Shown here one piece after another: positions 37,808-55,039 of a stretch of DNA of 64,000 nt. The notes under the pieces were generated by a model that had not been told where the DNA came from, did no database searches, and saw nothing but the letters and a program-made list of their open reading frames with translations. This DNA comes from an uncultured Parachlamydiaceae bacterium (GTDB taxonomy: Bacteria; Chlamydiota; Chlamydiia; Chlamydiales; Parachlamydiaceae). The position numbers were made by a program, and so were the translations under genes. The stretch covers positions 480,001 to 544,000 of the forward strand of contig CAVULX010000003.1 of NCBI GenBank assembly GCA_963742415.1. Direction: 5' to 3'. Each line of letters begins with the position of its first letter. The first letter of the stretch is position 1.

Positions 37808-38992
37808 TTACGATAATTTCACATGATATCCCTGCCGAACTGCCATTAAAGCAAGATCTGTGATTCCTTTCAGACGATAGTCATTATTCATCCATGATAC
37901 TTTATCCGAAAATGTCCATTCCAAAGATTCATGAGAAGATGCAATAGTAATGCATATTTCCGCAGGTGGTAAAGTCTTCTTAGAATCTTCTTCCATCTCT
38001 TCAGCGATAGTATTGGAATCTGAATCCTCCTCTCTAATTTTTTTAAGCTGACTTAAAATTATGGGAATATCGCTAGATCCTACAGGAAAATTATCATTTT
38101 TTTTTATCATTTCACGAAATTTCTCGGCATGTTCTGTGATATTATTTTCTAGAAAAGAGGCAAACACTTTCAAATTAGGAGACTGCGCAGGATCAAGGGA
38201 AGTTGTTTGTGATATACGCCTTTTATTTATTGTATCTAAGATTTTATTGGATAAAGTATTTGAGACTTCAGCCGGTGGTATTTTTTGTATTGTTCTTTTC
38301 AAACCCTCGGTGTTTACTTCTCTTTCAACAAGACTCTGAGAAAATTCAAATGTAGAAATAATAGAAGAAATGTAAATTATTATTTTTATTTTGGATTTTC
38401 TTCCACAACAATCACATGTAATTTCTTCCGCTTTTTGATCAATATATAAACGATCCCGACGAAGCTCTGCAAGATCATCCAGAACTTTTTCTTCAATGTC
38501 ACGAGGTGCTTCCTCCCATCTTATTCCAAATTCATTTTTTCCAATAGGTCTTCGAAGGGCAGCAGTCGGATACCACAAATGAGTTTCATAATCCAAACGA
38601 TCAGGTTTACGGATAATTCTATTTTTAACACACTCGGCAACTGTTTCACATACCTTCCAACGAATATCCTGCTTAAAATATAATGGGAATCTAACTGCAA
38701 AGCGCCCCCAAAGAATGCTCATATTAGGATAGTTTTCTTCCATACAAGAACAGTATTTTGTTAGATATCCAGAATATTCATTCAGTTTTTTCCAAATTCT
38801 TGTTGTTATCATTTGAATTTTTTCCAAATCAAAATTGTCGATCGATCTAGCATCATAGAAAGCTCTTTCAAATTCGCGTATGACTGTAAGAGGGTGACCG
38901 TTTGGCAGAAAACTCAAAATGTGATCGAAAACCTCTATAGGCAATGCAAACAAATTATTTCTTAGTGTCTCATTTGAAAGATTATTAATCAT
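37808..38992 (-). CDS. F-box-like protein (candidate effector)
   Basis: N-terminal LFALPIEVFDHILSFLP F-box pattern; low GC; AT-rich upstream region. Confidence 0.65.
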   Translation of the reverse strand: MINNLSNETLRNNLFALPIEVFDHILSFLPNGHPLTVIREFERAFYDARSIDNFDLEKIQMITTRIWKKLNEYSGYLTKYCSCMEENYPNMSILWGRFAVRFPLYFKQDIRWKVCETVAECVKNRIIRKPDRLDYETHLWYPTAALRRPIGKNEFGIRWEEAPRDIEEKVLDDLAELRRDRLYIDQKAEEITCDCCGRKSKIKIIIYISSIISTFEFSQSLVEREVNTEGLKRTIQKIPPAEVSNTLSNKILDTINKRRISQTTSLDPAQSPNLKVFASFLENNITEHAEKFREMIKKNDNFPVGSSDIPIILSQLKKIREEDSDSNTIAEEMEEDSKKTLPPAEICITIASSHESLEWTFSDKVSWMNNDYRLKGITDLALMAVRQGYHVKLS

Positions 38993-39290
38993 ATAAATTC
39001 ATGTTGTTATATTGATGATATTAATAAAACATCATTTATTGTAAAAAAATAAAAATAAATGCACACAAAAACTTAAGCAATTCACAGAAATTGTAATTGT
39101 TCAATAGTTTCATTTTGCATTGAATCAGTTGTACGCCTTGTGTGGATCAAAAATAATAATTATAATTAGATATTTATTAATTAGCATCTAAAATGTTTAA
39201 TGTTATAATGGCAATTTAGTTATGCTAAGTTTAGGGAGAATTAAAGACAAAAAGGACAAACCTCTGATTTTATGAAGTTATATATTACAT

Positions 39291-39318
39291 TTGCTTATAT
39301 ACGACAATGTCGTAGTCT
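39291..39318 (+). promoter_or_regulatory. candidate toxin-antitoxin promoter with palindromic operator
   Basis: TTGCTT-16 nt-TAGTCT overlapping the palindrome tacgaca-a-tgtcgta (39300-39314). Confidence 0.55.
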
Positions 39319-39376
39319 TCAGAAGAAAAAAGGATTATACAAAGATTAGTAGAAAGAATTAATGAAGGGGTTAAAA

Positions 39377-39691
39377 ATGGGTAAAATGTTTGAAATGTTA
39401 AAAGAAGGCCTTGATGATATTCTTGAACATCAAAAAGGCAAAAAAAAGTTAAAAACTAAGATAATAGACATTCCCGAGCCGGCTATTTCTTATACGCCAA
39501 AAGATGTGAAAAGAATTCGAGAATCTTTAAATTATCCTCAAAGCATTTTTGCTCGATTTCTTAATGTCAGTATTAGAACTGTAGAATCGTGGGAATCTGG
39601 AAGAAGAAAACCAAACCATGCAGCTTTACGGTTACTTGAAATCATTGATAAAGGTTATTATCCATCAAAGAAATGTAGAAAAACAATTTAA
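39377..39691 (+). CDS. XRE/HigA-like HTH antitoxin (YiaG-like), orphan
   Basis: MFEMLKEGL, VKRIRESLNYPQSIFARFLNVSIRTVESWESGRRKP..AALRLL. Confidence 0.85.
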   Translation: MGKMFEMLKEGLDDILEHQKGKKKLKTKIIDIPEPAISYTPKDVKRIRESLNYPQSIFARFLNVSIRTVESWESGRRKPNHAALRLLEIIDKGYYPSKKCRKTI

Positions 39692-39760
39692 TTTAAATTA
39701 GTAATTTTCTACTTCAGCCCTAACTATATACACTTCTTTATTTGCTTTTTGAAGCGAGTC

Positions 39761-40249
39761 TCAATCTATTCTTGTTTCTTCTAATATTTCTTCTTTAGAC
39801 CAGGGACATCGTTTTGGAAATGTTTTTTCATCTAAGTCGGTTTCCTGGGCAGCATCTAAGCGTGCGGATTCGTAAGATTTTTTTATTATATCTGGAAGTT
39901 TAGGTTTTAGGCTGGGATTTTCCTCTAAAACCTGCTTAATTTTTAGACGACTATTTTTGATCGATAGAGCCCAAGATTTGCTCCGTTTTTCTGATTGAAA
40001 TTTTGTTTTGAGCATGTGCATTAAAAGGACTTCCATATAACTTTGCAATGTGCGTTTTTCAGACCTTCCCAAAGATTCGATCTCCTCTATCAAATTTTCA
40101 ATGTCCAATTTTGAAAACTCCTTTTTTCTTAAAAAATGTGCTTGTGTATTAACCCATTTGAAAAAGTCTTTTTCGTATTCCATTTCTTTTGTTGGGGAAA
40201 AAGATAACTTTTTAGGCTTTATTTTTACTGTATTTTTTTTTGTTTTCAT
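39761..40249 (-). CDS. DUF29-family protein
   Basis: YEKDFFKW..Q, LDIENLIEEIESLGRSEKR, LLMHMLK, SW..SI, NPSLK, FP..CPW. Confidence 0.9.
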   Translation of the reverse strand: MKTKKNTVKIKPKKLSFSPTKEMEYEKDFFKWVNTQAHFLRKKEFSKLDIENLIEEIESLGRSEKRTLQSYMEVLLMHMLKTKFQSEKRSKSWALSIKNSRLKIKQVLEENPSLKPKLPDIIKKSYESARLDAAQETDLDEKTFPKRCPWSKEEILEETRID

Positions 40250-40410
40250 ATGAATCGTCACTGTTGAATTAAGGGTCACCGTTTGGTGGTGATAATATCA
40301 CCATCAAATGGAGACTCTTTGTTTGGAACATTTTCATTTTTAGATTTTCCATTTTTCTTGTTATTCTGTCTCAAAAATAGTCTTTTCTTTTAAGAAGCAG
40401 CATTCGTATA

Positions 40411-40881
40411 TTGAAGTTAAATATCAAAAAAGTCATGGGTTATTTTTTTTTAGATATAACGGGATTTGGGGGAAGCTACCATTCTACTCTTGTCCATTTT
40501 CCAATCATGTTTTTTACATTGACGCTGGTGTGCGACCTCTTCACCTATTTTGGTAAAACCCGTTTTATGATTCTTGGAAATGGTTTGTTGTGGCTTGGAA
40601 CCCTTATGTGTATTCCTGTCGGAATAACCGGCTGGTGGGAATCGGATGGATTTTCCTTACAGAACAGCGATTTTTTTTGGCATGTATTAACGTCTATTTT
40701 CTTATTTATCTATGCTCTCTTATATTCTTGTCTTCGCATCCTCATTGCCTACAAAATGTGGCGAATCCTTCCTATTTACTTAGTGGCACTCAGCTGCGGG
40801 ATTGTTGCACTAACCTCTTGGACGAGTATGCAAGGGGATCTCCTTCGCCAGTCTAATGTTTCTAAAAGTGAAAAGAAATAA
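40411..40881 (+). CDS. DUF2231-like membrane protein
   Basis: H..LVHFPI, ITGW, His in helix 3, G.L at the end; 4 TMs. Confidence 0.75.
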   Translation: MKLNIKKVMGYFFLDITGFGGSYHSTLVHFPIMFFTLTLVCDLFTYFGKTRFMILGNGLLWLGTLMCIPVGITGWWESDGFSLQNSDFFWHVLTSIFLFIYALLYSCLRILIAYKMWRILPIYLVALSCGIVALTSWTSMQGDLLRQSNVSKSEKK

Positions 40882-40884
40882 TTA

Positions 40885-41011
40885 ATGTAAGTTGAAAATT
40901 ACTGAGTGTAATCAAGTTTAAAAAACCTCTGTGATCTCTGTGGTTTATTAAAATTCAACCACAGAGTTCACAGAGATCACAGAGAGACAATAAATTTAAT
41001 TATGCAACTTA
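40885..41011 (+). repeat. repeat family B (MITE-like), right copy
   Basis: direct copy of 37093-37230 with one 9-mer fewer. Confidence 0.93.
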
Positions 41012-41075
41012 TTTTTAGTGAAATTAAATATAAATTATGATATTTTTTTGTTTTCATCACTAAAAACATGGTTTT

Positions 41076-42290
41076 ATGAATAATAATATTAATCTGTATT
41101 TATCAAGCGAAGGGAATTCGTTTATTTTTTCAAAAAAAGATAAAAACTCTTCACAAGGAGAATTGCAACAACAAGCCCAGCAATGTAAAACACATCGAGC
41201 TGTGCTCGAATTTCTGAACAGTATTCGTGAAAAACAAGGTTTGTTTGAATTTAGACATGAACATAATTCCAACTATGATGGGCATAACTTAGATCTAGGT
41301 TTTGGATTGTACAAAGGCCAATCTCATGAATGCGAATACGACCAAATGGTTGAATTTGTAAAACAAAAGGTGACGGAAAACTACCAAAAAGTGACCCTTT
41401 ATTTAGGAAAAGATGGAAATTCTATTGAAGCTCAATTTAATAGGAGTAGGAGTACAGGTGTCTTTAGTAGAGCTGAATATATCACAGATAAAGATGGTTT
41501 GAGTGAAATTCATCCCCTTTTAGGCAAAGCTGCAGATTGCAAAACCCATTACGCGGCATTTCAATACTTTAAAGAGCTTCAAAATGAAACAGAATTGTTA
41601 AAACATATTAGTATCTATCACGATCATAATCGTCATTATTCAGATCATTATTTAGGTTTTTGTGGTATTAACATAGGTAAAGCTCATGAATGTGCCCATG
41701 ACAAATCCCTTGAATTTATTAAACAAAGAATAAGGATCAAAGATTTAGAAAGTGTAAAAGATATTTTTGATTACTTGGAAGAGATTCAACCAGAAGTCGA
41801 AGTTTCATTGTTGGGATCCAGAAGGCTAAAGTTTAAAGAATATTCGATTAGTTTAGAAAGATTGATGGATCTTATCCGAGAAGTGGCGGACAAAACGTTG
41901 TTTGGTAAAACTCAATTTTTAACTCGCAAGGATAGACCTAAAGAAGATTTAAATAATGATGAAGAGTATCAGGAGCGCAATCAATTAGCACTTAATCTAA
42001 CCGAAAAGGTTCGTGGCTATTTTACCGCTTCTGAACGAAAGTTACGACAACGCAATAAATTCACAAAAATTTTAGCTAGTTTGAGAAATTTTAACAGGCC
42101 ATTGCAGCATAATGGAGACACAAGTATTGAATCAGTTTTTGGTATCATGCAAAGAAGATTAGGCCTTCAAGAATATGAGCAATGTATCAAGGTGGATCCT
42201 AAGAAGCCTATTCAACAAGAACTTGAAAAACTAGAAAAAATCCTAAAACTCTCAGAGAAAGAATTTATTATTTCTTTTTTTAACGTTTAA
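41076..42290 (+). CDS. hypothetical protein with a tandemly duplicated His/Cys-rich domain
   Basis: two copies of LYLxxxGNS...CKTH...HxHNxxYxxH...HEC...EFxKQ. Confidence 0.8.
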   Translation: MNNNINLYLSSEGNSFIFSKKDKNSSQGELQQQAQQCKTHRAVLEFLNSIREKQGLFEFRHEHNSNYDGHNLDLGFGLYKGQSHECEYDQMVEFVKQKVTENYQKVTLYLGKDGNSIEAQFNRSRSTGVFSRAEYITDKDGLSEIHPLLGKAADCKTHYAAFQYFKELQNETELLKHISIYHDHNRHYSDHYLGFCGINIGKAHECAHDKSLEFIKQRIRIKDLESVKDIFDYLEEIQPEVEVSLLGSRRLKFKEYSISLERLMDLIREVADKTLFGKTQFLTRKDRPKEDLNNDEEYQERNQLALNLTEKVRGYFTASERKLRQRNKFTKILASLRNFNRPLQHNGDTSIESVFGIMQRRLGLQEYEQCIKVDPKKPIQQELEKLEKILKLSEKEFIISFFNV

Positions 42291-43303: not shown

Positions 43304-43726
43304 TTAAGGCTGCGATATAAAAAACTCGCGGATCCCTACGGCGACGGCGGTACCGATGAAGAGGAAGGGGGTCGCAATAAATAGAGCGAGCACAGTTCCA
43401 CCTAAGATGAGGCTTTTGACAATTCCATATTTCTCGAGATATCTCGGATAGTTTTTAAGTCTATTTGAGATCTCGGGAGCAAAATAAAGTCCAAAGATCA
43501 CGCCGATGAGGGTTGCTCCGTACCAAGGGGGTTCGAGGAATAATAACAATAGGCCGACAACTATGAGAACATAGGCGATCGTATCTCGCACATTGTTGGT
43601 GGCATAATTGTAGATTTCTTCCACCTTTTCATGTTTTTTGAAATTTTCAATGGAATCGCTCAGTTTATCTTTGAAAGATTTCTTGTCATCTTTATTCTGA
43701 GGATCTCCTGAAGGGGTATTTGTCAT
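43304..43726 (-). CDS. hypothetical membrane protein
   Basis: RBS AAGGAG; charged N-terminus plus hydrophobic hairpins. Confidence 0.75.
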   Translation of the reverse strand: MTNTPSGDPQNKDDKKSFKDKLSDSIENFKKHEKVEEIYNYATNNVRDTIAYVLIVVGLLLLFLEPPWYGATLIGVIFGLYFAPEISNRLKNYPRYLEKYGIVKSLILGGTVLALFIATPFLFIGTAVAVGIREFFISQP

Positions 43727-43742: not shown

Positions 43743-43994
43743 TCATTGATTCAAATTTGGGTCATCTTGATTGATGATGGGAAAGGTTGTATTGGCCGCA
43801 CGCTGCAACTGGTTCCAGTAGCCTCGGTCGAGCCAACCATAGCTCCCATTCCAGAAATAGCAAAACCAAATTACTCCCCAGATCGGAAGCAATATATAGG
43901 TTAAAATAAGCCAGCGGGGGACAGAATTTTCATAGCTGGAAATCCTTTCATCTCCATACTCTTCGATAGAGGTTTTCTCATTCTTCACCGTCAT
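43743..43994 (-). CDS. CcoP/FixP N-terminal-like membrane peptide without heme domains
   Basis: EYGDERISSYENSVPRWL..TYILL.IWG resembles the CcoP N-terminal motif (GIxEYDNPLPRWW); no CxxCH. Confidence 0.6.
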   Translation of the reverse strand: MTVKNEKTSIEEYGDERISSYENSVPRWLILTYILLPIWGVIWFCYFWNGSYGWLDRGYWNQLQRAANTTFPIINQDDPNLNQ

Positions 43995-44244
43995 CTCCCT
44001 TATTTTCTGGCGGAAGCTTGTCCAGGTCGCCCTGATCTTCTTCCATCATTCTTATTTTAGGTTCTTCATCCATGTCAAGCTTTCCTTTTTTCCATAGGTA
44101 TAAAAAAGCTAAAAAAGCGCTGCCGACAAAAGCAAGTATGAAAGCGTAATGGACTAAGCTGCCGCATTCTCCGCTCGCATCTAATCCTTCCGATGCTGCA
44201 ATGTACTGCAAAGCTCTTATCTTCATATGCATACCCAAACTCAT
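43978..44244 (-). CDS. CcoS/CcoQ-like small membrane protein
   Basis: TM followed by FLYLWKKGKLDMDEEPKIRMM, similar to CcoS (W..GQFDD.E.P..R). Confidence 0.55.
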   Translation of the reverse strand: MSLGMHMKIRALQYIAASEGLDASGECGSLVHYAFILAFVGSAFLAFLYLWKKGKLDMDEEPKIRMMEEDQGDLDKLPPENKGDDGEE

Positions 44245-45530
44245 TTTATTTTCCTTTTTCCTTCAATGATGGCTTTTGTGTCTATGGGATCTTTTCCTAG
44301 CCACCAAGCTTCTGTTGGAGGGGTAATCCGGGTCCCTTTGGTCATCAAATATTGGTAGAGGGCTTCAAATTGGTGGTTAGGGACACCGATAAGCGAGCGG
44401 GATGAACCCCGAGGGTCGTTATCAAAAAAATGTTTAAAAGAAGGCATGATAGAACCTGCGCTCGCCGTTTTGGGGGACCAGAAGTGCCCTTTATGCCAAT
44501 CGCGGCTAGGGCGTTTGATCCCGGTCCTTGAAAGGTCGGGCCCGATCCGGCGGGTACCTGGGAAGGTGATCTTCTGAAAAATATATTCATTTGCTGAGGA
44601 GGGGGGAGCGGGGTAAGCAGCCGAGCCGTTTAGAACGACATCTTGCACGAGCGTCCTCGTTTGATCTGTATGGCAATACCAGCACCCTTCAATAGCGAAT
44701 AGGTGCTCCCCCATGCTAATGAGGTCTGCCCTTGAGAGAAATCCGAGGGGGTGCTCGCGCAATTGCTGTAAGTTTGTGATCTTTTGCCCGTTAGGATCAT
44801 AGCGCCATCCCTCTTCTTTGCCGAAAGTGAAATGGGAAACGCGGTATTCTTTAGGATTATTAATGTAGATTAAACCTGGGCTGTTATGATAAGGCTGTTG
44901 GAGTGTTCCATCCAAGATTTTATATTCGGAATCGACCCAGTTTTCGATGATCCCGTCGACGGGGGCGTTGGCAAATGCCTCTGTACCTCCCGGTTCGTAG
45001 AGTTCTAGGATTTCGAAATCAGGCTTGAGAAGACCCTGCTCCTTCCATTGGGGATTTTCTTTTTCCCATTTTTCCCTGTTGGCGCGTTGGATTTTTTCAG
45101 CTTTTTGCATGGGATCAAAGGGAGCCCCTGGAGCGGCTTGAGACGGAGAGCGCAGCATGAGGAGATGGGAGGTGAGTTTTAATTGGGGATCCTCCTCGCG
45201 TGTGACAAATTTTTCGAGTTCGGGGGGTGCGATAATTTTAAAAACATCGCTTTCATGAAAAGCTAAAAGGGTAAAACCCTCTTTAAGGTGATAGACGAAT
45301 TGCAATTCGGAACCCCCGCTTAAAGCGCTTCCGATGTAAAGGTTTGGATCGGAGACCTCATACATTTGCACTTGATAAGAGCTTGTGGGTTGTGTCCAGG
45401 TGGGGTCTATATAACTTGGCGCCACCAAAACAACCCCTATAGAAGCTGAAAAAAGCAAAATAATTCCGATCACAGTGAAGATTGCCGATTTATCAAGCGT
45501 GTGGATGAAGCTGTGGTTGTGTTCTGCCAT
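44241..45530 (-). CDS. ccoO: cbb3-type oxidase subunit II, enlarged (429 aa from MAEHNHS)
   Basis: EGCWYCHTDQTR, GTRRIGPDLSR, WH..H, GSIMPSF; long insertion between TM and heme domain. Confidence 0.88.
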   Translation of the reverse strand: MAEHNHSFIHTLDKSAIFTVIGIILLFSASIGVVLVAPSYIDPTWTQPTSSYQVQMYEVSDPNLYIGSALSGGSELQFVYHLKEGFTLLAFHESDVFKIIAPPELEKFVTREEDPQLKLTSHLLMLRSPSQAAPGAPFDPMQKAEKIQRANREKWEKENPQWKEQGLLKPDFEILELYEPGGTEAFANAPVDGIIENWVDSEYKILDGTLQQPYHNSPGLIYINNPKEYRVSHFTFGKEEGWRYDPNGQKITNLQQLREHPLGFLSRADLISMGEHLFAIEGCWYCHTDQTRTLVQDVVLNGSAAYPAPPSSANEYIFQKITFPGTRRIGPDLSRTGIKRPSRDWHKGHFWSPKTASAGSIMPSFKHFFDNDPRGSSRSLIGVPNHQFEALYQYLMTKGTRITPPTEAWWLGKDPIDTKAIIEGKRKIK

Positions 45531-45532
45531 AG

Positions 45533-46993
45533 TTATGCTTTTACCTGTATTAATCGATCTTCCTCTTTTGCTGGCTTCAATACAATGGTGTTGAAGACAT
45601 TCACGACGAAGAGGATGTTTGCAAATAAGATGATAAGGCCTCCGACGCCCCGTAAAATCCACCAAGTGCGCATGTCAGCGACAGTCTGCAAGAAGGGGAG
45701 AACCGTTAAGTTGCGATGAAATTGTTCATAAGTATATCCATCTGCCCAGGTGGCCCATTGCATCCCTTGAAAAAATCCCCCGACCCATAAAGCAAACAGG
45801 AAAGGGACGCTTCCCAATAGGTTTAGGCCGAAATGCCAATCTGCCAAGCTTTGGGACCAGAGGGGCTTTTTGGTGATCACCGGGATGGCTTGGTAAATGC
45901 CGGCGATAGCAAAAAAGGTGAAAGTGGCGTACAGGGAGATGTGGGAATGGCCGATCACCCAATCGGTCTTGGATGTGATTTCATTGATATTTCGCATGGC
46001 CATTAAAGGACCTTGTATGCAGGTCAACAAATAGAAAATATTTCCCATCATCAGGAAGCGGATAGGGGCGCTTTGGGTATATTCCGCCCACTGCGGCTTG
46101 AGGGTATAAAAGAGGTTGCTGACGACAGTCCAAACAGGGATAAACAGCCAGATTGAAAAGACGATCGCAGTAGTTTGGAGCCATTGTGAAATCGGGCCAT
46201 GGATCATATGGTGGGCGCCGATCCAGGCATATACGAAGGCAATTGACCAGAAGCCGATCATCGAAAGTTTATGGCTGTATATGGGAGTGTTGGCCAACTT
46301 GGGGAGAAAATAGTACGCTTGGGCTAGTCCCATTGGAGTAAAGATCAAACCCACGAGATTATGCACATAAAACCAGCTCACATTCACTCTAGAAATTCCA
46401 CCCGGAACTAAATTGATGACGTAGTAGCCGACAATTACAGTGAATGTTGTCCAGATCATTGTCCCCATGGTGTACCATAAAGAGACATACATTTTTTCAT
46501 ATTTGCGGGTGGCAATCGTCATGAATAAGTTTACGGCAACCAAAATCCAAGCCGCTGTAAATATGAGTTTGATGGGAAAGAACCCGACGAAAACGGGCAG
46601 TTCTGCATATTCCCATCCGAAGTTGGTTCCCCAGGGGTAGGAGTAATTGCCAACGGTGAGGGAAAACCACCATAAGGCTGCTGAGACATAGGCCATGCGG
46701 GAGCTCCAGAGGGGAACTCCGCAGAGGCGGGGAACAAAGTAATAAAAGAGCGCGATATCAGCCGAGAGGAGCCAATTGAGGGTTACGTTGGCTACGTGGA
46801 CCGGGCGGACCCTTCCAAAGTGGACATATTCCCCTGAAAAATAATCGGGCCAGACAAAGGTGTTGAAGGCGATATAGACCCCCACAGACATGCCTAAAAT
46901 CATAAAAATGATAGCTGGGTAGAGCATGACTTTAACAGGTGTGTCGTCATATATTGTTGGAGGAGGTGATACTGCGGCCGTGCTTGTTGTCAT
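45533..46993 (-). CDS. ccoN: cbb3-type heme-copper oxidase subunit I
   Basis: GRVRPVH, EYAELP, WFYVHNLVG, YAWIGAHH, DWVIGHSH: all six His ligands and the helix VII Tyr present. Confidence 0.93.
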   Translation of the reverse strand: MTTSTAAVSPPPTIYDDTPVKVMLYPAIIFMILGMSVGVYIAFNTFVWPDYFSGEYVHFGRVRPVHVANVTLNWLLSADIALFYYFVPRLCGVPLWSSRMAYVSAALWWFSLTVGNYSYPWGTNFGWEYAELPVFVGFFPIKLIFTAAWILVAVNLFMTIATRKYEKMYVSLWYTMGTMIWTTFTVIVGYYVINLVPGGISRVNVSWFYVHNLVGLIFTPMGLAQAYYFLPKLANTPIYSHKLSMIGFWSIAFVYAWIGAHHMIHGPISQWLQTTAIVFSIWLFIPVWTVVSNLFYTLKPQWAEYTQSAPIRFLMMGNIFYLLTCIQGPLMAMRNINEITSKTDWVIGHSHISLYATFTFFAIAGIYQAIPVITKKPLWSQSLADWHFGLNLLGSVPFLFALWVGGFFQGMQWATWADGYTYEQFHRNLTVLPFLQTVADMRTWWILRGVGGLIILFANILFVVNVFNTIVLKPAKEEDRLIQVKA

Positions 46994-49900
46994 GGGGTTC
47001 CTTTCTCTTTGTTAAATTCTGCTAATAACTGGTTTTGCTTTTGCCTGGAACGAACAGCGTCTTCAAAACCGGTGACCACCCTTTTTTTTATTTTTAAATA
47101 GGAGGAGATTTGGTTGTTGAGAGCTGTAAGTTCGTTTATTTTGTCTTGTGAAGCGAGTTTACCTTCGACAATTAATTTTCTAGCTTCTAATTCTGTTATT
47201 TTTCCATTTAAGTCATCGATAATTTGTTTTTCTAACTCAGTTAAAGTTTTTTCCTTTTCAGGATCTAGCGAAGCATTCAATTTACCATCGTTGAATGTAT
47301 AAACCATTGTTTTTAATTTTACTAACTTTAGTAGATCGTTAAAGTCTTTCTTATCATCCAGTTTGAGCAAAGCTAGTCCAATTCCTTGATAAATTTCCTG
47401 TTCGGAAGCAATTTCGGTTTTTAAATTTGTGAGCAATGAATCTAATTTCTGCTGTTTTTTCAGTTCTGAGAGGTTATTAAGCTCTTGTTGATAAATTTCT
47501 AAAGATTCATGGGACAACCCTTGTTGGGAGTTGATTTCGTCGTAAAGCCGCTCCCTTTTGGCTTGCAGGTTTTTGTGCATCTCTTGAGCTTTTGCGAGAG
47601 TAGGGTAGAGCTGGATTCGGGCATTTTCTACTGTCAAAATCCCGTTTTCGTAGCTTGCATATAAAGCGCTAAAAAGCTCTTCCCGAAGGTGTAGCTCTTG
47701 AGTTAGAGAACGGATGTAGATGACGAGTTGAAGCCGTTGAAGGGAGTTTGTTAAATCCCCCCACGGGGTCATTGCTGTGCCTGGAACCCCATATTTAATC
47801 GAACGGAGCAGCCTTAAATCGTCGCGGGTTAAGCTCCAATCCAGATTAGTTAGCATGCGGGGTTTAGCGTCTTTCATGGCGCTTGCACGGAGGCCTGTTC
47901 CATCGGCATCATGCCCATGGCAGATGGAGCAATTGAGTTGAAAGAAGGCATCTCCTTGGTCGATGTTTTCTTGGGTAAAGTATTTTTTCTTGATGTAATA
48001 AGCATATTTTTCTGGGCCGTTCGGATTAGGGACGACATCAAAGACGTCACTTACTTTAAGATTTTCCTCCTCCTCATTGCTTGGAGAGGGAACAGGCTTT
48101 AAAGAAGCGTAATACCCTTTTCCTGAGGGGACGAGACTTCGCAGTAGATCCAGAGATTCCGAATTCAGGCTTGAATGGGGGTTGAGGTCTTCCTCTTTCC
48201 CACTTTTGAGTTTGTTCCCCTCCTCTTCGAGTTCCTTTAGCACATCTTCAGGGGTGTAGTTCCATTTGGGGACATCTTGCGCACCCCTAATGACGTTTCC
48301 TCCTGGAAGCGAAGAAAACATCCAATCCACTAACCGTTTGATTTCAGATTGGTTTAGGACAGGGATATTGTCCATCATCGGCTTATGGGCAGCCACCTCT
48401 CCCCAGGGGGGCATTGGAGTCCCTTTGACCCCGTGTGTGATTGAGTTAATGACCCTTTCTTTTGTCAGATTTCTAAGAAAATCGGTATTTCTCAAATTTT
48501 TAGGTATAGGATAAATCCATTCCGCAACCGGGCCATTCCCTTGCATGAACTCCCCGTGGCATTGGGAACAATGGATTTGGAAAGCTTGGGCTGGATTGAA
48601 GCCCCGATGTTCCCAGATGGCCTTGATCTCATCCCGGTTGTGCTTCCCAAGGACATCCAGCATGTTGGTCAGAGCATAAAATTTTGTGTCATCGAAAGGC
48701 ATGACGGGCATAATCGAGCGGGGGACATGGCTTGCGGGATTGTGAAAGTGTTCCATGAGCCATTCGTCGGTGCGGTAAACTCCCGACCAATTAGGTCTGG
48801 GACCAATCACTCTTCCCAGTCCGTACTCCTGAATGAACATCATTAACACGTTGTGGACCCGCTCTTTCCATTGTTGAAGGTCGGCCTCGATTTGGGCCTT
48901 TTCTTGCGGATCTTTTGCCGCTGCGGCTTTCAATTGAGATGCGTGGTTCTTGGCTCTGGCCGCATATTTAAAGCTTGTGTAGAGCGATTCAACTTGCCCT
49001 GGAACAATTTGATCGATCTCTTCAATGATCGAGCCTTGGCGTACATCAGGGGTAATATGTTGGTCTATTTCAGCAGCATGGGCGTCAAGAGTTTTGACAA
49101 GCTCGCTTCCGATAATGGTCTCTGGGAATAGGTTTTTAAACCACTCATGCTCTTGGTATAGATCATCGAAATTCAGGTTCCCCTTTTTTTCTTTTTCGAT
49201 GTTAAAGCCGACATTAGACTCAAACCCTTTTAACCGATGGCAAGCCGAGCATCCCTCTGTGGCAAAGACCAGCATGGCATAGCGGAGATCTTTGATTTTT
49301 CCGGCGGGAATAGCCTTTTCCCAAGGAAGTTTTTTTCCTGCTTCCCATTCTTGGATGGTTGTCTTGTAAGCGGTTTCTGAAATAGCCTTTCGATCTCCTG
49401 TTTGAGCGAGAAGAAATGTGACGAGATCTTCTAGGTCTTCGTGATCCATTTTATAGTTGGGCATGGTTGAAGTAGGGAGGTCGGCTTGAGGCCAAACGAT
49501 TGATTCTTTGATGAACCAGGGGTAGCTTTTCCCCTCCCTCGTTAATTCCGGGCCGACGCCTCCCCGGGCAAAACCTGCAATCCGGTGGCAGGCTCCGCAA
49601 GCTTGGGAAATGTAAAGCTGCTCCCCTCGATGATAGTTTTTTGTTAACAGATCTACTTCAGAGGCCATTTCTGAAACGACTTTTTGATCATTTACGACTT
49701 TTTGAAAGGATGTTTCGGTGTCTCTGAGATGCTGCATGATCTCTTTTTCTAGCTGCAGCTTTTCCATTTTTACAAAGATAGAGCCTTTTCCGGGGTCGCT
49801 TTGATGTTCCTTAAGGAACATATTGATGGTTTGATCAGCGGCGCCTTTCTCTTTTGCTTGATTGACAAGCGCTTGCGTCAGCTGTGGGGAACCCAAGATG

Positions 49901-51063
49901 TTTGTTATCGCTTGTTCGATCTGCCTTTTAGCTCCTTCTGAGCTAGAGCTGGTTTTACTCAGATATTGCGATTGTGCATTAAATTGGTCTTGCTCTTTTT
50001 GCGGGAGGGTGAAATCTTGCGATTTGCTTTGAACCTCATTAAGAGACTGTTCGTAGCCGATTTGTTCTATGCGGATGAGAAGATTTAATAATGCCGCCAA
50101 CGCATTTTTTTCGTCGTCAAAAGCCACCTGCACCGCATTTGAAATTTTTCCCCGTTTTTCCACCACGTTTCCGGCGAAGTTCGCTGCTCCAAAGAGTGTG
50201 GATGCGCTGTCTTGGTGGCAATTCATACATTTTGCTTGAATCAGGGCGTTAACTAAGATAGGGGTCGTCTGAAAAAGAAGCTCATGGCCAGGTTTGTTAT
50301 TGAATACTCTGGCAAAGAGGGGATCATTGTCAGGATCTTGTTCGGTAAAAATGGGTTTCGGTCCCATGAATTCCGGTTCATAATCTCCATCGAAAATAGG
50401 ACCATGAGCTTTTTCTGTGGTTAAACCGCGGCCGTTTCCGCTGTGGCATGAAGTGCACCCAAATTCCGATATAGGGTGATATTCAAAAGGGCGAGTTTCC
50501 ATCCCCATCAAGGGGTGCATCTGCAAGACTTTTGTGACGTCGTAAACGTGATCCCCTACATGGGCTGTTTTGAGATCTTTATAAGCTTTGGCTTGAGCCA
50601 ATCGAGCTGAGACCTGGTCCCCTTTTCCACTCTCTTCCAATTCTTGATTCTTTTTTTGATCGGTGAGTTTTTCTATTTCTTCATCCAAACGCAGCCATAC
50701 ATAATTTTCGTTGGGGATTTGAATGGGCTTCCCTTCGGCATCCCGTTCAATGTTGCCATTGACATTCATAGCAATTTTTGTAGGGGAAAAATGGGGAAAC
50801 TGCAAGGCCACGTGGCAAGAGGTGCATCGATCAATGATGGGGGGCCCTTTATCTTCACGCTCTAAGACAATTTGTTTCACCTCTGTCTTGAAATCGGGGG
50901 GAGATTCCCCCGTGTAGGAGGAGCGAAATCTTTCTAAAGAGATGTAGTCCTCTTGATAAATTTTGTATTCAGGGAAAATTTCCCGGCTCAAAAAAGCTCC
51001 AAACAGGACCGTAGCTACGATGCCAGCAGCGATAAGAGAGTATTGATAGATTTCTGCGCGCAT
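46990..51063 (-). CDS. membrane-anchored multiheme cytochrome c (7 CxxCH motifs)
   Basis: CTSCH, CTSCH, CMNCH, CGACH, CSACH, CSQCH, CSICH; N-terminal TM; coiled-coil C-terminus. Confidence 0.92.
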   Translation of the reverse strand: MRAEIYQYSLIAAGIVATVLFGAFLSREIFPEYKIYQEDYISLERFRSSYTGESPPDFKTEVKQIVLEREDKGPPIIDRCTSCHVALQFPHFSPTKIAMNVNGNIERDAEGKPIQIPNENYVWLRLDEEIEKLTDQKKNQELEESGKGDQVSARLAQAKAYKDLKTAHVGDHVYDVTKVLQMHPLMGMETRPFEYHPISEFGCTSCHSGNGRGLTTEKAHGPIFDGDYEPEFMGPKPIFTEQDPDNDPLFARVFNNKPGHELLFQTTPILVNALIQAKCMNCHQDSASTLFGAANFAGNVVEKRGKISNAVQVAFDDEKNALAALLNLLIRIEQIGYEQSLNEVQSKSQDFTLPQKEQDQFNAQSQYLSKTSSSSEGAKRQIEQAITNILGSPQLTQALVNQAKEKGAADQTINMFLKEHQSDPGKGSIFVKMEKLQLEKEIMQHLRDTETSFQKVVNDQKVVSEMASEVDLLTKNYHRGEQLYISQACGACHRIAGFARGGVGPELTREGKSYPWFIKESIVWPQADLPTSTMPNYKMDHEDLEDLVTFLLAQTGDRKAISETAYKTTIQEWEAGKKLPWEKAIPAGKIKDLRYAMLVFATEGCSACHRLKGFESNVGFNIEKEKKGNLNFDDLYQEHEWFKNLFPETIIGSELVKTLDAHAAEIDQHITPDVRQGSIIEEIDQIVPGQVESLYTSFKYAARAKNHASQLKAAAAKDPQEKAQIEADLQQWKERVHNVLMMFIQEYGLGRVIGPRPNWSGVYRTDEWLMEHFHNPASHVPRSIMPVMPFDDTKFYALTNMLDVLGKHNRDEIKAIWEHRGFNPAQAFQIHCSQCHGEFMQGNGPVAEWIYPIPKNLRNTDFLRNLTKERVINSITHGVKGTPMPPWGEVAAHKPMMDNIPVLNQSEIKRLVDWMFSSLPGGNVIRGAQDVPKWNYTPEDVLKELEEEGNKLKSGKEEDLNPHSSLNSESLDLLRSLVPSGKGYYASLKPVPSPSNEEEENLKVSDVFDVVPNPNGPEKYAYYIKKKYFTQENIDQGDAFFQLNCSICHGHDADGTGLRASAMKDAKPRMLTNLDWSLTRDDLRLLRSIKYGVPGTAMTPWGDLTNSLQRLQLVIYIRSLTQELHLREELFSALYASYENGILTVENARIQLYPTLAKAQEMHKNLQAKRERLYDEINSQQGLSHESLEIYQQELNNLSELKKQQKLDSLLTNLKTEIASEQEIYQGIGLALLKLDDKKDFNDLLKLVKLKTMVYTFNDGKLNASLDPEKEKTLTELEKQIIDDLNGKITELEARKLIVEGKLASQDKINELTALNNQISSYLKIKKRVVTGFEDAVRSRQKQNQLLAEFNKEKGTP

Positions 51064-51082
51064 CTATGATCCTTGTCGTGTG

Positions 51083-52408
51083 CTAATGCCTTGCATAGGT
51101 TTCGGTCCAAGGCCAGATCCATCCCCAATTGGCCCCTCTGAAAAAGGTGCCGATGACGATCAATATTCCCTGCCATGTCATAAAGGCTGTATAGAGGAAG
51201 ATCGCCACATAGCGGCTGCGGTGGAACCAGTACCCTTCCCCGTGGGGATTACGGTCCAGATAGGGGATGGACATCAACCCTAAAACGATGCCGATGGGAA
51301 TAGCAACCCCTCCCCAAAATGCATTATAGGCGACCATTTCTTGCAAGCCAAGAAAGTACCAAGGTGCTTTTGAGGGATTGGTGGGCTTGCTTGGATTCGC
51401 AGGTTCTTCTAAAGGGGCATCGATAAAGGACAATCCTAAAATTAAGACTAATGTCAACAGAAAAGCGACGAGTTCGGCTCGCAGCAGATGGGGCCATGTA
51501 AACACAAAGTTATAAGGCCCTTTATCGACAGTAGGACAGGTTCCTCGCACAAGCTCCATCAGGCCATAGGTTCGCTTAACACCCGGAGCAAAAGATTCTT
51601 TCGTATCGGACCGCTGCACCACGCGGTAAGGATCGGGGCGGATTTTATCTGGCGGGCGTGAAAGCCCTCCATCTTTCCGGATGCGCCAAAAGTGCACGCC
51701 GATCAGGGTTCCTGCAATAAGGGGCAAGAAAGCCACATGCAGGACATAAAAGCGGATCAAGGCATCTTGCCCCACTTTCGTCGAAGCCAGCAGCATCACG
51801 CGGTTGACATTGTATTCAAAACCCGGAAGATTGGGGACATAGCCTGCGATGTTCGTTCCGACGGTGATCGCCCAAAAGGCAAGCTGATCCCAGGGGAGCA
51901 GATAACCGGTAAAGGAAAGCAGCAGCGTCAAAAACATCAGCATGACCCCGATGACCCAATTGAAGCGGCGCGTTCCTTTGTAAGATCCTGTATAAAAGAC
52001 GCGCGACATATGCAGAAAGACAAAGAGCACCATCATGTGGGCGCTCCAGCGGTGCATGTTGCGGTACATCATGGCAAAGGGGGTCGTGTCTTGCCAATCT
52101 TTCATGATGTCGTAGGCGCGATCTTCCGCGGGAATGTAATAAAACATCAAAACGACGCCAGTGAACACGAGGATTAAAAAAAGGCTCATCGTAATCGAGC
52201 CCAGGCCCAAAGTGTAAAAAGGATCGAGGGAATGTTTGTGGCATTTGACAGGATGAAAATGGAGAAAAAAGTTTTTAAAGACAATTTCAGATCGGTCGAC
52301 ATCATTGTTGGGATAGTTATGTCGAAAAATCGAGCGCACAAATAAGGAAGGCAGGTTGGCTAAGTATTCTGCCCAAGATTCTCTTCTTTTTCCCTTAAAA
52401 ACAGCCAT
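51083..52408 (-). CDS. cytochrome b of a Rieske/cyt b complex (b6 plus subunit IV in one chain)
   Basis: MHRWSAH...LHMSRVF, GYLLPWDQ, RFYVLH-x14-H, NPSKAPWYFLG. Confidence 0.93.
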   Translation of the reverse strand: MAVFKGKRRESWAEYLANLPSLFVRSIFRHNYPNNDVDRSEIVFKNFFLHFHPVKCHKHSLDPFYTLGLGSITMSLFLILVFTGVVLMFYYIPAEDRAYDIMKDWQDTTPFAMMYRNMHRWSAHMMVLFVFLHMSRVFYTGSYKGTRRFNWVIGVMLMFLTLLLSFTGYLLPWDQLAFWAITVGTNIAGYVPNLPGFEYNVNRVMLLASTKVGQDALIRFYVLHVAFLPLIAGTLIGVHFWRIRKDGGLSRPPDKIRPDPYRVVQRSDTKESFAPGVKRTYGLMELVRGTCPTVDKGPYNFVFTWPHLLRAELVAFLLTLVLILGLSFIDAPLEEPANPSKPTNPSKAPWYFLGLQEMVAYNAFWGGVAIPIGIVLGLMSIPYLDRNPHGEGYWFHRSRYVAIFLYTAFMTWQGILIVIGTFFRGANWGWIWPWTETYARH

Positions 52409-52427
52409 AATATCTCCTTAACGCTTT

Positions 52428-52940
52428 CTAACCTGTTGGCGAATACCAAGCTTCATCCCAATCCAGTGTTGTTTTTGATTTATCCACCAAAATGTCTCCC
52501 GAAGCCCCTTTGAAGACAAAGAAATAGACCAGAGGCAAAGGAGCCGGCCCCCCTGTGTTTTTGCCATGGCGGTCATACGTCGATCCATGGCAGGGGCAAG
52601 CATATCCTGTTTCCACCATATTGACTGTGCATCCTAGATGAGTGCAGACCGCAGTTTGTACGCGCACTTTTCCCGATAGGGTTTCAATAAACACTTTTTG
52701 CTTGGGATTAAAGACTTTCCCGTCGCGGGATAAAACTTCTTCAGGCCTTCCGATGGAAAATACGCTCGGAGGAATTTTCATCGCATTGGGATAAAGAAAG
52801 CCTAAAAGGGAGACATTCGCCATGCCTGCAACACCGACTAGACAGGCCCCTACGCCCATCAGAGCCAGAAAGGAGCGGCGGGAGATCATCGGATCCTTAT
52901 CATCAGGATCGACATTCAATGAATTGCGGTATTTGGGCAT
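52428..52940 (-). CDS. Rieske 2Fe-2S subunit
   Basis: Tat motif SRRSFL; CTHLGC and [15 protein letters not shown]. Confidence 0.95.
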
Positions 52941-52943
52941 GGT

Positions 52944-53075
52944 CTACTCCTCCTCTCGAAACATTTGATATTTCACATCTTCAGGGTCTTCAAATTGCCC
53001 TTTGCGCAGGTAATAAATATAAACCAACATTCCAGATCCTCCAAAAGCGATCGAACTGACAATCAGCCAGAGCAT
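52944..53075 (-). CDS. CcoS-like cbb3 maturation peptide (43 aa, absent from the ORF track)
   Basis: MLWLIVSSIAFGGSGMLVYIYYLRKGQFEDPEDVKYQMFREEE*; TM plus GQFED motif; fills the gap between its neighbours. Confidence 0.8.
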   Translation of the reverse strand: MLWLIVSSIAFGGSGMLVYIYYLRKGQFEDPEDVKYQMFREEE

Positions 53076-53079
53076 GTTT

Positions 53080-54919
53080 TTAACCTATCCAGCGGAAAGA
53101 ATAATTCATCACATCCATCGTCACGGCCTGCGTCGGACATTTTTCTGCACATAGTCCGCAGCGGATGCATAGATCTTCATCTTTTAGCATGGCCGTTCCC
53201 ATCAATGCTAATTCCTCATCTTCCATACTGACAGAATCGACTCCATAAAAATTATCGACAGCCCTTGCGCAGGTTGCCTTCGCCAAGATCCAAGTTTAAT
53301 TTGCTAATAGGAACCTGCTTCAAGCAATTGCATGGGCAGACATCGACGCATCCATTGCATTTGATGCAGAACGTCCCATCAAACACAGGACTGACATGGC
53401 ATTGAAGGCAGCGGTTGGCTTGCTGATGCGGCTTCTTCTTCGGTATAGTTATTTTCCACCATGTTCTGATTATGGATTCGAACATCAGGCGGCTGCATGG
53501 TCGGGAGCGCCCACTTGGTCCTTAAATAGGTCTTATCGCGCATCGGGGAGATTTCGGTAAATTCCCCTACAAATTCCTGATAGGGTGCGGTCCCCCGCAA
53601 ATCGCTGTCGATAGCTCGGGCGGCATCCTGCCCATGCCGTATGGCTGTAATGAATAAGGCGGGGCCAAAGGCGGCATCGCCGCCTGCATAGATCCCTTTG
53701 ACGGAGGTGCGGCCAGTTCCCCTTTCCGTTTTGATGATGCCGCGGTCCAAAACGAGCTGCTCTTTTTTATCCCATCCATTAAAGAGGCTCATATCCATCG
53801 ATTGCCCAATGGCCAACGCCATAGTGTCGCAAGGAATGACACGCTGTTTGTCGGGAATGAGTTTAGGGGCAAATCGTCCGGTATAATCAAAAAGGGAATA
53901 GATCTCTTGTACGCGCAATCCCGTAATTGCTCCATCACTATTCCGTTCCACCGCAATGGGCGCTAACCGGTTGATGATGGTGATCCCCTCTTCGAGGCCA
54001 TCTTCGATTTCAAATTCATCCGCTGTCTGCTCATCGCGTGTTTCTAGGCAAACCATAGTCACTTTTTTGGCCCCATTGCGGACAGAGGTTCGAGCGACAT
54101 CAAAGGCGACGTTTCCTCCTCCGACCACGATCATATTTTCGCCGATTTTCCATTCCTCTTCCATGCAGCGCACCCGCAAATACTCGATCCCGCGGATCAC
54201 ATCTGGCTCATCAGCTCCTGGAATAGGCAGATCGCGCGATTTCCATAGGCCGACTCCAATAAAGACGGCATCATACTTTTTTTGCAGTTCGGTCAGGGTG
54301 ATATCGCGCCCCACCTTCATGTTGTAATATATTTTGGCGCCCAGATATTCGATGGCATAGATTTCATTGAAGGCAATCTCATTTTTTAAGCGATAGGTAG
54401 GGACTCCATAGGTTAGCATCCCCCCGGGAATGCGCATCATTTCGTAGACATCGACCGCATACCCGAGGCGAAGAAGATCGTGCGCGCAAGTCAGGGAAGC
54501 GACCCCCGCGCCGATGCAGGCCACTTTGAGTCCATTGGGAGTTGGACTGGGTAGAGCCTCGGGCATAGCTCATTTCTAGGGATTTGACATGGGCTTCTTT
54601 ATCAAGGCCAAACCACTCATCCAGATACCGTTTTTGCGCCCGGATAGTCAATGTTTTATCGACCCGGTCGCGCCGGCAGGTGAGTTCGCAAGGGGCTCCG
54701 CAGATCATGCCGCAGATCGAAGCAAAAGGATTTGGTCCACGCGCAATTTTATACCCTTCGAGATAGATTGCCTGCATGCAGGGCAATCATATATCCGCGG
54801 GGATCGGTATTGACCGGACAGCCGTCGCGGCAATCGATCTGCCGGATATAATAATCGAGATCGGGAATGACGACATCGTAGATATCTCTATAGGCTGCAA
54901 TGACATCATCGTCAGACAC
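53080..54919 (-). CDS. GltD/NfnB/DsrL-like FAD/NAD(P)H oxidoreductase with N- and C-terminal 4Fe-4S domains, interrupted by four +1 frameshifts
   Basis: GGAGGT RBS plus GTG at 54919; CRDGCP, CGMICGAPCELTCRR, IGAGVA, VVGGGNVAFDVAR, RCLQC, CIKCNGCVDVCP, CIRCGLCAEKCP; removing 4 bases gives 612 codons. Confidence 0.85.
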
Positions 54920-55039
54920 GTACACCTCCGCAACAAGGGGGAATGTATCAAACCAAGGAGATTTTTTAAATTGTTTATTTTTATTCTATAAGCTAATTTT
55001 TACCCCAACACTTGTTAGGATAGAGGAGGCAAGGTTGAA

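Follow-up and report, generated by a model that had tools for sequence, protein, structure and literature searches.

The question raised by this locus is how a chlamydial Rieske/cytochrome b complex can be connected both to a nicotinamide adenine dinucleotide (NAD)-dependent flavoprotein and to a cbb3-type oxidase, and in which direction electrons pass between them. The locus is an operon on the minus strand of a 64,000-nucleotide stretch of DNA (the window) from an uncultured Parachlamydiaceae bacterium, an environmental chlamydia (assembly GCA_963742415.1, contig CAVULX010000003.1, positions 480,001 to 544,000). Judged from sequence comparison, the operon appears to be a conserved variant of the subfamily-G NAD-linked complexes to which a distinct cbb3 oxidase without CcoP is attached. 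The reading preferred here, to which a probability of about 0.45 is given, is that electrons from menaquinol would be bifurcated, one passing through a seven-haem cytochrome c to O2 and the other through the flavoprotein to NAD+. The nine genes, in their order of transcription, are:

53080..54919, minus strand: GltD/DsrL-like flavoprotein with flavin adenine dinucleotide (FAD) and Fe-S clusters, about 610 residues in relatives; four +1 insertions here
52944..53075, minus strand: CcoS/FixS-like peptide of 43 residues with one transmembrane helix; PF03597 at 28.4 bits (cut-off 23.1)
52428..52940, minus strand: Rieske protein of the twin-arginine translocation (Tat) type, 170 residues; Ser120/Tyr122, twin Arg; best PDB match 9rk3_A
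51083..52408, minus strand: fused cytochrome b6 and subunit IV-like protein, 441 residues; haem ligands H119, H133, H224 and H239
46990..51063, minus strand: N-terminally anchored seven-haem cytochrome c (heptahaem cytochrome), 1357 residues; seven CxxCH motifs
45533..46993, minus strand: divergent CcoN, subunit I of a C-family haem-copper oxidase, 486 residues; COX1 match
44241..45530, minus strand: enlarged CcoO, 429 residues, one CxxCH; FixO match
43978..44244, minus strand: CcoS/CcoQ-like peptide with one transmembrane helix, open reading frame (ORF) of 88 residues; paralogue of the 43-residue peptide by BLAST cross-hits
43743..43994, minus strand: haem-less peptide resembling the CcoP membrane anchor, 83 residues; PF14715 (FixP_N) at 25.8 bits (cut-off 24.9)

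The operon thus runs from 54919 to 43743, with the flavoprotein first and the 83-residue peptide last, and its junctions measure, in order, +4, +3, +19, +19, -4, +2, -4 and -17 bp, which confirms the nine co-oriented genes with gaps or overlaps of at most about 20 bp described in the first-pass annotation of this DNA. Pfam backs every label except that of the 88-residue peptide; the gene identities proposed there hold as profile matches, with the reservation that the flavoprotein has no intact ORF in this assembly. Each of the nine genes is present in a single copy in the source genome (G000), which is 84% complete; all genome-wide negatives below have this scope.

The operon was followed through 161 genomes from across the Chlamydiota (160 for the flavoprotein, G045 being left out). 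Since the genomes are related, the counts are descriptions and not statistics. Profile matches were found for cytochrome b in 36 of 161 genomes, for the flavoprotein in 35 of 160 and for CcoN in 39 of 161, and the operon is absent from all 28 members of one family with genomes of 1.0-1.2 Mb, taken to be the Chlamydiaceae. All 35 genomes with the flavoprotein are among the 36 with cytochrome b, and by coordinates the two genes lie less than 2 kb apart in all of them (35/35), so the synteny on which the first-pass annotation made its proposal depend is present. CcoN occurs in all 35, on the same contig in 32. The gene order was compared at 35 chlamydial loci, picked for a match to the flavoprotein or to cytochrome b: in 32 the full order is present, in one more the final two peptides share an ORF, and the other two loci are split. 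The conservation goes far beyond chance, with the seven genes tested present as separate ORFs in the same order at 32 of the relatives' 35 loci. The 36th cytochrome b genome, G096, has a protein of another type that is only 29% identical. It belongs to a different cluster of Rieske, cytochrome b and cytochrome c genes in divergent orientation (L081:1033-6915), in a family otherwise without the operon.

The deletions that have occurred in relatives help to define the modules. In G180 the flavoprotein, Rieske and cytochrome b genes have been lost jointly, with the 43-residue peptide, the heptahaem cytochrome and the oxidase kept. In G089 (L077) and G124 (L078), which are 98% and 96% complete, the bc genes are gone and the 43-residue peptide and oxidase genes are kept; G089 still has remnants of the lost genes. 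Whenever the bc genes are deleted (L077, L078 and L079), the 43-residue peptide stays with the oxidase. Based on this joint loss and retention, the flavoprotein is assigned to the bc module and the 43-residue peptide to the oxidase. The tie of the flavoprotein to the Rieske/cytochrome b module is therefore supported by co-occurrence and joint loss, with some weak support from complex prediction (below). Two further arrangements were noted. No heptahaem cytochrome was found genome-wide in G089 or G124, and ccoN-ccoO persist there as an orphan oxidase for which no heptahaem or bc donor was found. A lone, more divergent ccoN lies beside an efflux operon (L080:8569-10191; G137:C11), and a shortened heptahaem-like gene (688-residue frame) is present on another contig.

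The Rieske protein has as its best PDB match a chain, 9rk3_A, which we take to be a structure from the study of the Kuenenia complexes. Ser120 is present in 45/45 and Tyr122 in 44/45 chlamydial copies, forming the Ser/Tyr signature of high-potential proteins, and TatC is encoded in the source genome. Rieske proteins with this signature are placed in the 300-350 mV class in the accessible part of PMC3509893. MenB is encoded in the source genome, where MqnA/D was not found.

In cytochrome b, the Qo motif APWY (residues 348-351) is conserved together with the four haem-b His residues, and the protein very likely belongs to the subfamily G or APWY clade. Comparison of 115 homologues of at least 380 residues showed that Gly68, in the sequence GLGS (68-71), takes the place of the haem-cn Cys in 115/115, and that His50 is invariant in 115/115. 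The end of helix D is of the b6 type (Arg-Lys). His50 is of particular interest since, in the accessible text of PMC12954380, Kuenenia residues His43/Arg247 and His62/Arg266 bind a proposed extra haem in the models of both complexes, and AlphaFold3 placed this haem on the dimer axis beside the oxidoreductase in both proteins. In five homologues of the split, CxGG type, the residues equivalent to His50 and Arg244 are 204 positions apart, as are the two Kuenenia pairs; by this spacing, a proxy rather than a direct Kuenenia alignment, His50 probably corresponds to the proposed dimer-interface ligand of the anammox proteins. The monomer model of cytochrome b, with a mean predicted local distance difference test score (pLDDT) of 70.6 and an unresolved linker at 256-298, confirms the fold and nothing more. 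The named matches, from Waddliaceae and Simkania, are 79-83% identical, with further ones from Chlamydiales. No Kuenenia sequence was among the matches listed in two protein homologue searches, both saturated by chlamydial matches.

All protein-level analyses of the flavoprotein were carried out on the intact copy of a relative, L023. It consists of an N-terminal Fe-S domain, an FAD/NAD domain and a C-terminal ferredoxin domain with two [4Fe-4S] clusters; its cluster cysteines are retained, its best PDB match is 9bov_A, and its best profile, NF009410, gives 403.8 bits, below the cut-off of 516. Chlamydial copies are 70-85% identical, like a core subunit. The YRR motif is a mark of NADP use in DsrL and NfnB, in the accessible text of PMC7596348. 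At its position Glu291, in the local sequence CLE, is present in 43/43 chlamydial and 26/31 other copies. Since an acidic residue replaces the motif, the cofactor is probably NAD(H) rather than NADP(H). The link to the NAD(P)H pool proposed earlier therefore keeps its NAD-binding flavoprotein and, YRR being absent from 43/43 chlamydial copies, is narrowed to a probable NAD(H) cofactor. The domain order, with N-terminal Fe-S, FAD/NAD(P), linker and C-terminal ferredoxin, is the same as that given for DsrL, GltD and NfnB in that part of PMC7596348, whereas the operon protein falls below the family cut-off, has cytochrome b as its partner and lacks YRR. DsrL is encoded together with dsrAB, whereas no dsr gene adjoins the operon in the window; no genome-wide search for dsrAB was made.

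The heptahaem cytochrome has its CxxCH motifs at residues 80, 203, 279, 489, 605, 832 and 1045. The three N-terminal haems are accompanied by additional conserved His residues and are probably bis-His ligated; there are four class-I-type domains with a conserved Met, one FixO-like. Helical inserts in the chlamydial proteins enlarge a core of about 600 residues. The last four domains give a confident fold (pLDDT 85), and the best match is Kustc0457/0458 (6h5l_B). The idea that the haem domains of CcoP have moved into this protein is unsupported: the score with TIGR00782 is 61 (cut-off 180), and a fold search with residues 470-1130 has no CcoP chain among the matches listed. The resemblance to the role of the CcoP haems is thus best regarded as a functional analogy only. 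One heptahaem copy, in L094, has six CxxCH motifs.

The first-pass annotation had remarked that neither a cytochrome c1 nor a dihaem CcoP gene is present, and this is upheld for the genome as a whole, since no cytochrome c1 was found in it and strong matches to PF13442 occur only inside the heptahaem cytochrome. Among ORFs of at least 90 residues the only other clear c-type cytochrome (G000:C4:900858-901919), read by eye, resembles a dihaem cytochrome c peroxidase. A CcsA-type haem lyase is encoded. Because neither c1 nor a soluble carrier was seen, we infer that the heptahaem cytochrome is the likely path from the Rieske protein to CcoO, no other plausible connection to the oxidase being seen in this genome.

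The oxidase itself is a trimmed member of the cbb3 type. CcoN retains the six metal-ligand His residues and the cross-link Tyr, and it has Gln327 and Gly247 in 44/44 copies, chlamydial or not, where 3mk7 from P. stutzeri has Glu and His. The Glu adjoins the proximal His of haem b3, and the His is a channel residue. These two substitutions appear to mark a distinct subgroup of the C family, in which O2 affinity or nitric oxide chemistry may be different. TIGR00780 gives 264 bits against a cut-off of 583, and TIGR00781 59 against 201. The enlargement of CcoO is due to an insert at about residues 60-240, which is missing from four non-chlamydial copies (189-270 residues) and has no match in the Atlas. 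Among the small peptides, that of 43 residues gives 23.2 with TIGR00847, below the cut-off of 28.35; that of 88 residues has no Pfam or NCBIfam match, and its true start is probably later than annotated. The 83-residue peptide aligns weakly with residues 45-82 of 3mk7_C (E 0.45) and lacks the conserved Glu at the position of CcoP Glu49, where 28/38 homologues have Ser. Compared with CcoNOQP (3mk7), the CcoN metal ligands, the cross-link Tyr, most K-channel residues, a monohaem CcoO and FixS- and FixP_N-like peptides are shared, whereas the dihaem CcoP is reduced to the 83-residue stub, CcoO is about twice its usual size and all NCBIfam scores are below cut-off. The bc1-cbb3 supercomplexes, in the accessible passages of PMC10556555 and PMC7876108, differ in that the partner in the operon is not a bc1 complex. 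CcoG and PntB were not found in the source genome, which also encodes bd and bo3 oxidases, Nuo and Nqr. In L021 (4398-4829, minus strand) the last two small peptides form one two-helix ORF of 143 residues, which may be either an assembly artefact or a genuine fusion that resembles an anchor of the CcoP type, and in L031 ccoN lies in two ORFs.

Outside the chlamydiae, the best 80 of 596 confirmed metagenomic stretches were compared, 79 of which are distant from the chlamydial group. A flavoprotein match is present in 48 of these 79, in three cases to a short ferredoxin-like protein only, and ccoN is found in 4 of the 30 non-chlamydial loci with at least 4.5 kb of downstream sequence. The same genes occur at two loci, L107 and L116, where the heptahaem cytochrome measures 595-639 residues, CcoO is short and the flavoprotein lies at the 3′ end; the genes after it were read by eye as DsbD-like and CcoG-like. 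The Atlas holds similar multihaem clusters from Acidobacteriota and Planctomycetota. The flavoprotein, Rieske/cytochrome b and multihaem genes are thus a widespread core, to which a cbb3 oxidase is attached as a rule in chlamydiae and in a minority elsewhere, and the architecture is not special to chlamydiae. In a tree made by a quick method (93 rows trimmed to the b6 part, 13 of them chlamydial, rows without the anchor motifs dropped), the cytochromes b of L107 and L116 group with proteins mostly labelled Acidobacteriota, one row being labelled Firmicutes (Shimodaira-Hasegawa-like approximate likelihood ratio test, SH-aLRT, 99). The phylogenetic comparison proposed earlier is answered to this extent; the backbone is unresolved, no named Waddlia or Kuenenia row is included, and no donor or direction of transfer is claimed for cytochrome b. 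In L107 a regulator of Rrf2 type (2777-3235; read by eye, no family scan) precedes the Acidobacteriota-like operon.

In the mechanism proposed, menaquinol would be oxidised at the Qo site of the subfamily-G (APWY) Rieske/cytochrome b complex, with the cytoplasmic NAD(H) flavoprotein docked beneath the cytochrome b dimer and the trimmed cbb3-type oxidase wired to its outer side. The downhill electron would pass from the high-potential Rieske centre through the heptahaem cytochrome to CcoO, CcoN and O2, so that the heptahaem cytochrome would cover both the role of cytochrome c1/f and that of the CcoP haems. The second electron, instead of returning to quinone, would pass through haems bP and bN to a His50 haem shared by the two monomers, and from there through the ferredoxin clusters and FAD to NAD+. 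The NADH formed would be re-oxidised by Nuo or Nqr, so that each quinol would drive the pumping of more ions than a classical Q cycle allows. The wiring by itself, whichever way the electrons run, is considered quite probable. Delivery to NAD+ is favoured because the N-side site has no haem cn, a conserved His could serve to bridge across to the ferredoxin domain and bP is implied to have a low potential. In the accessible text of PMC12954380, a high-potential Rieske protein combined with menaquinone implies a very low bP, and this mismatch is argued to favour NAD(P)+ reduction in Kuenenia.

The contact between flavoprotein and cytochrome b was modelled with two copies of cytochrome b (residues 1-402) and residues 425-610 of the flavoprotein, an intact pair from L023. 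The pair scored 0.40 against 0.00 for the best of three controls, with at least 59% contact agreement between runs and a partner pLDDT of at least 67. The mark applied is reached by 116/157 solved complexes and 2/215 mismatches; 18 of the 157 and both mismatches reach it at scores of 0.60 or less. The calibration is rough for this job. Multimer prediction, suggested in the first-pass annotation, thus gives weak backing to the docking of the flavoprotein on cytochrome b, and it lifts the odds slightly, because the docking was already a likely guess beforehand.

With potentials of -70 mV for menaquinone, -320 mV for NAD and +820 mV for O2, and 180 mV per charge, the oxidation of menaquinol by O2 is estimated to yield about 1780 meV per electron pair. 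A classical Q cycle with a cbb3 oxidase would move about 5 charges (900 meV), and the loop through NADH and Nuo about 9 (1620 meV), so the bifurcation route is allowed energetically overall. Several points weigh against it, or against the close connection of its parts. The bifurcation step is marginal at full membrane potential, with an estimated 370 mV or so available from menaquinol to the Rieske centre against about 250 mV plus the membrane potential needed, and the organism is a heterotrophic endosymbiont with no obvious shortage of NADH. The equivalence of His50 depends on a spacing proxy, and the anammox dimer haem is itself a prediction. The operon is split in G021, G022, G185 and G186, with ccoN elsewhere in each; an opposite-strand gene cuts the flavoprotein off in L034, and ccoN is preceded by inserted genes in L027 and L082. 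The oxidase-only G089 and G124 show that the oxidase is not strictly tied to the heptahaem wire. These splits and oxidase-only derivatives speak against the hard-wired complex of the first-pass annotation being an obligate unit, and a single supercomplex that would unite a CcoP-less cbb3 subclass with uphill NAD+ reduction, by bifurcation through a new dimer-interface haem, is rather doubtful.

The same wiring could run in reverse, with NADH passing electrons through the flavoprotein, the His50 haem and haem bN to quinone, much as ferredoxin-NADP reductase (FNR) is thought to feed electrons to the b6f complex; the operon would then encode a self-contained low-oxygen chain from NADH to O2 that bypasses Nuo and Nqr. 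This is a possible, if somewhat unlikely, alternative. Such a reaction runs downhill and would come naturally to a heterotroph, the signature, being of the NAD and not the NADP type, suits the catabolic pool, and all the evidence for coupling (co-occurrence, joint loss and prediction) suits either direction equally. However, it needs a quinone site on the N side, where the haem-cn Cys is missing and the end of helix D, being Arg-Lys as in b6, lacks the His that is a residue of the bc1 Qi site. It would also waste the span conserved by Nuo or Nqr, an argument made likewise for Kuenenia in the accessible text of PMC12954380. The operon might instead bring together loosely connected, co-regulated enzymes, namely a Q-cycle complex of the ordinary kind and an oxidase apart from it, with the flavoprotein a soluble partner in redox balancing, ferredoxin reduction or assembly. 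The operon splits, the oxidase-only derivatives, the minor place of cbb3 outside chlamydiae (4/30) and the weak complex prediction are in line with this arrangement, which is nevertheless unlikely, since the flavoprotein is never seen without this cytochrome b (35/35) and is conserved like a core subunit, and its anammox homologue is stated to co-migrate with its complex (PMC12954380, accessible text).

The remaining alternative, that the flavoprotein gene of this organism is a true and very recent pseudogene and that this copy of the operon lacks its NAD module or is decaying, arises from the state of the gene in the window, which the first-pass annotation took to be intact, overlooking four frame breaks. 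The gene is read in five frame segments, separated by single-base insertions near 54764, 54547, 53431 and 53266. Four frameshifts in 1.84 kb exceed the background of about 0.06 per kb, and real deletions of the flavoprotein/bc module do occur in relatives (L077). Yet an alignment to 12 relatives shows exactly four single-base insertions, all of them +1, with no further indel and no nonsense codon; 322 of the 323 residues invariant in those relatives are retained, and amino-acid change, compared with the codons near the frame breaks excluded, shows no excess. The gene is one ORF of 610-644 residues in 20/20 relatives fetched. Frameshifts affect 4 of 86 testable genes of this assembly (6 of 121 in a wider set), 9 of 10 shifts being +1, and the same pattern disrupts rpsB (ribosomal protein S2), polA and nqrB, as well as nuoD and cyoB (bo3 subunit I). 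Two other assemblies (L075 and L076) have worse damage in the same genes. Since other core genes are also broken and the relatives are intact, the four breaks are very probably assembly errors, from sequencing or polishing, and a pseudogene is highly improbable. Programmed frameshifting or a four-base code was rejected, as the four sites share no common motif and the relatives are in frame. In L075 and L076 the frameshifts are concentrated in the flavoprotein, Rieske and cytochrome b genes, with no break in the long heptahaem gene or in flanking genes, which suggests a polishing artefact favouring conserved genes. A single TAG lies within a flavoprotein match at G143:C54:65126-66946.

Several known systems are close to the operon. 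One clade of cytochromes b carries three names: subfamily G (PMC5600118), the APWY clade (PMC4122944) and group A2 (PMC3509893). In the accessible passages of these papers, its features are the APWY motif, an S-Y Rieske protein, GLGx instead of CxGG in long members and an NAD(P)-oxidoreductase neighbour, all shared by the operon, and the cytochromes b of Parachlamydia, Waddlia, Estrella and Rubidus are included. Group A2 unites chlamydial members with Kuenenia (PMC3509893), the chlamydial APWY members go with S-Y Rieske proteins (PMC4122944) and subfamily G co-occurs with NAD(P) oxidoreductases (PMC5600118). The legend of Fig. S1 of PMC5600118 names PF07992, PF14691, PF00115, PF02433 and PF13442 among the neighbourhood domains, flavoprotein and cbb3 domains thus being included, and the operons drawn there may already depict the nine-gene architecture. 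The APWY clade was termed uncharacterised in 2014 (PMC4122944), and the nine-gene order, the CcoP-less oxidase and a mechanism are not described in the passages of the subfamily G papers. PetBD and CcoO/N are entered as separate chlamydial complexes in the accessible part of PMC9816063. The clade has thus already been published, together with its chlamydial members and the adjoining oxidoreductase, and the novelty claimed earlier for the architecture and the flavoprotein coupling is reduced accordingly; what stands of it is the link to cbb3, for which a literature search, mostly without subscription papers, found no description or test in this operon.

The closest functional parallels are the Kuenenia complexes Kuste4569-4574 and Kustd1480-1485. 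In the accessible text of PMC12954380, these have an oxidoreductase with four Fe-S clusters and FAD, a multihaem cytochrome c in place of c1/f and a Rieske protein of high potential combined with menaquinone, all as in the operon, where the Rieske potential is judged by its sequence signature, so the anammox resemblance seen in the first-pass annotation, a co-encoded FAD/Fe-S NAD(P) oxidoreductase together with a multihaem cytochrome c, was well founded. In the operon, however, cytochrome b and subunit IV are fused in one 441-residue chain, whereas they are split in Kuenenia; Gly (115/115) replaces the haem-cn Cys of the Kuenenia CMGG motif; and there is no HAO-like octahaem protein, the downhill acceptor being the encoded O2 reductase. 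By analogy, the operon would work like the anammox complexes without two of their defining features, the split cytochrome b and haem cN. The actinobacterial obligate bcc-aa3 supercomplex likewise joins a menaquinol-oxidising bc complex to an oxidase without a soluble cytochrome c. It has an A-type oxidase, a dihaem QcrC, a PDWY-type cytochrome b and no NAD module, unlike the operon, so that this is an analogy only.

Immediately 5′ of the flavoprotein gene lies one further feature:

54942..54970, minus strand: candidate extended -10 promoter of the sigma70/sigma66 type, -35 TTTAAA, 17-nt spacer with TG, -10 TACATT; a consensus match only

The pattern, drawn post hoc after the upstream sequences had been viewed, is found in 12 of 44 chlamydial upstream regions; in 1000 shuffles the mean was 0.12 and the maximum 2. 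It has no minus-strand match within the operon. Generic scans of the operon for promoters (13 sites, shuffle mean 17.3) and terminators (17 sites, shuffle mean 15.2) gave chance levels, and no FNR or Rex boxes were found in 26 upstream regions with consensus patterns. At the other end, a tenth co-oriented ORF (43304-43726, minus strand) encodes a two-helix membrane protein of 140 residues, 16 bp past the last gene, with a weak DUF2207_C match below cut-off. It is not a core member of the operon, because only one other chlamydial locus of those searched (L065) has it behind the operon. Beyond it, window positions 38001-42000 are low in G+C (0.32-0.33) and contain a small helix-turn-helix-like ORF (39362-39691), an ORF of 172 residues (39761-40279) and a DUF2231 ORF (40411-40881); the first two labels were read by eye, with no family scan.

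Rieske/cytochrome b complexes that bear an NAD(P) oxidoreductase are known chiefly from work on anammox bacteria, which grow slowly, and for one of the anammox complexes no downhill acceptor is proposed in the accessible text of PMC12954380. Here the acceptor is an O2 reductase encoded in the same operon, so that the direction of electron flow can be tested with NADH, quinol and O2 assays, and the carriers, which can be grown in amoebae or in culture, offer an accessible test system. In the chlamydiae, PetBD and CcoO/N mostly form a single conserved unit that includes an NAD module. If the operon does encode a bifurcating supercomplex, aerobic users of menaquinone would regain energy that is wasted by the classical Q cycle, a new mode of energy conservation would be common to chlamydiae and Acidobacteriota-like bacteria, and the unexplained anammox complexes would have a tractable model.

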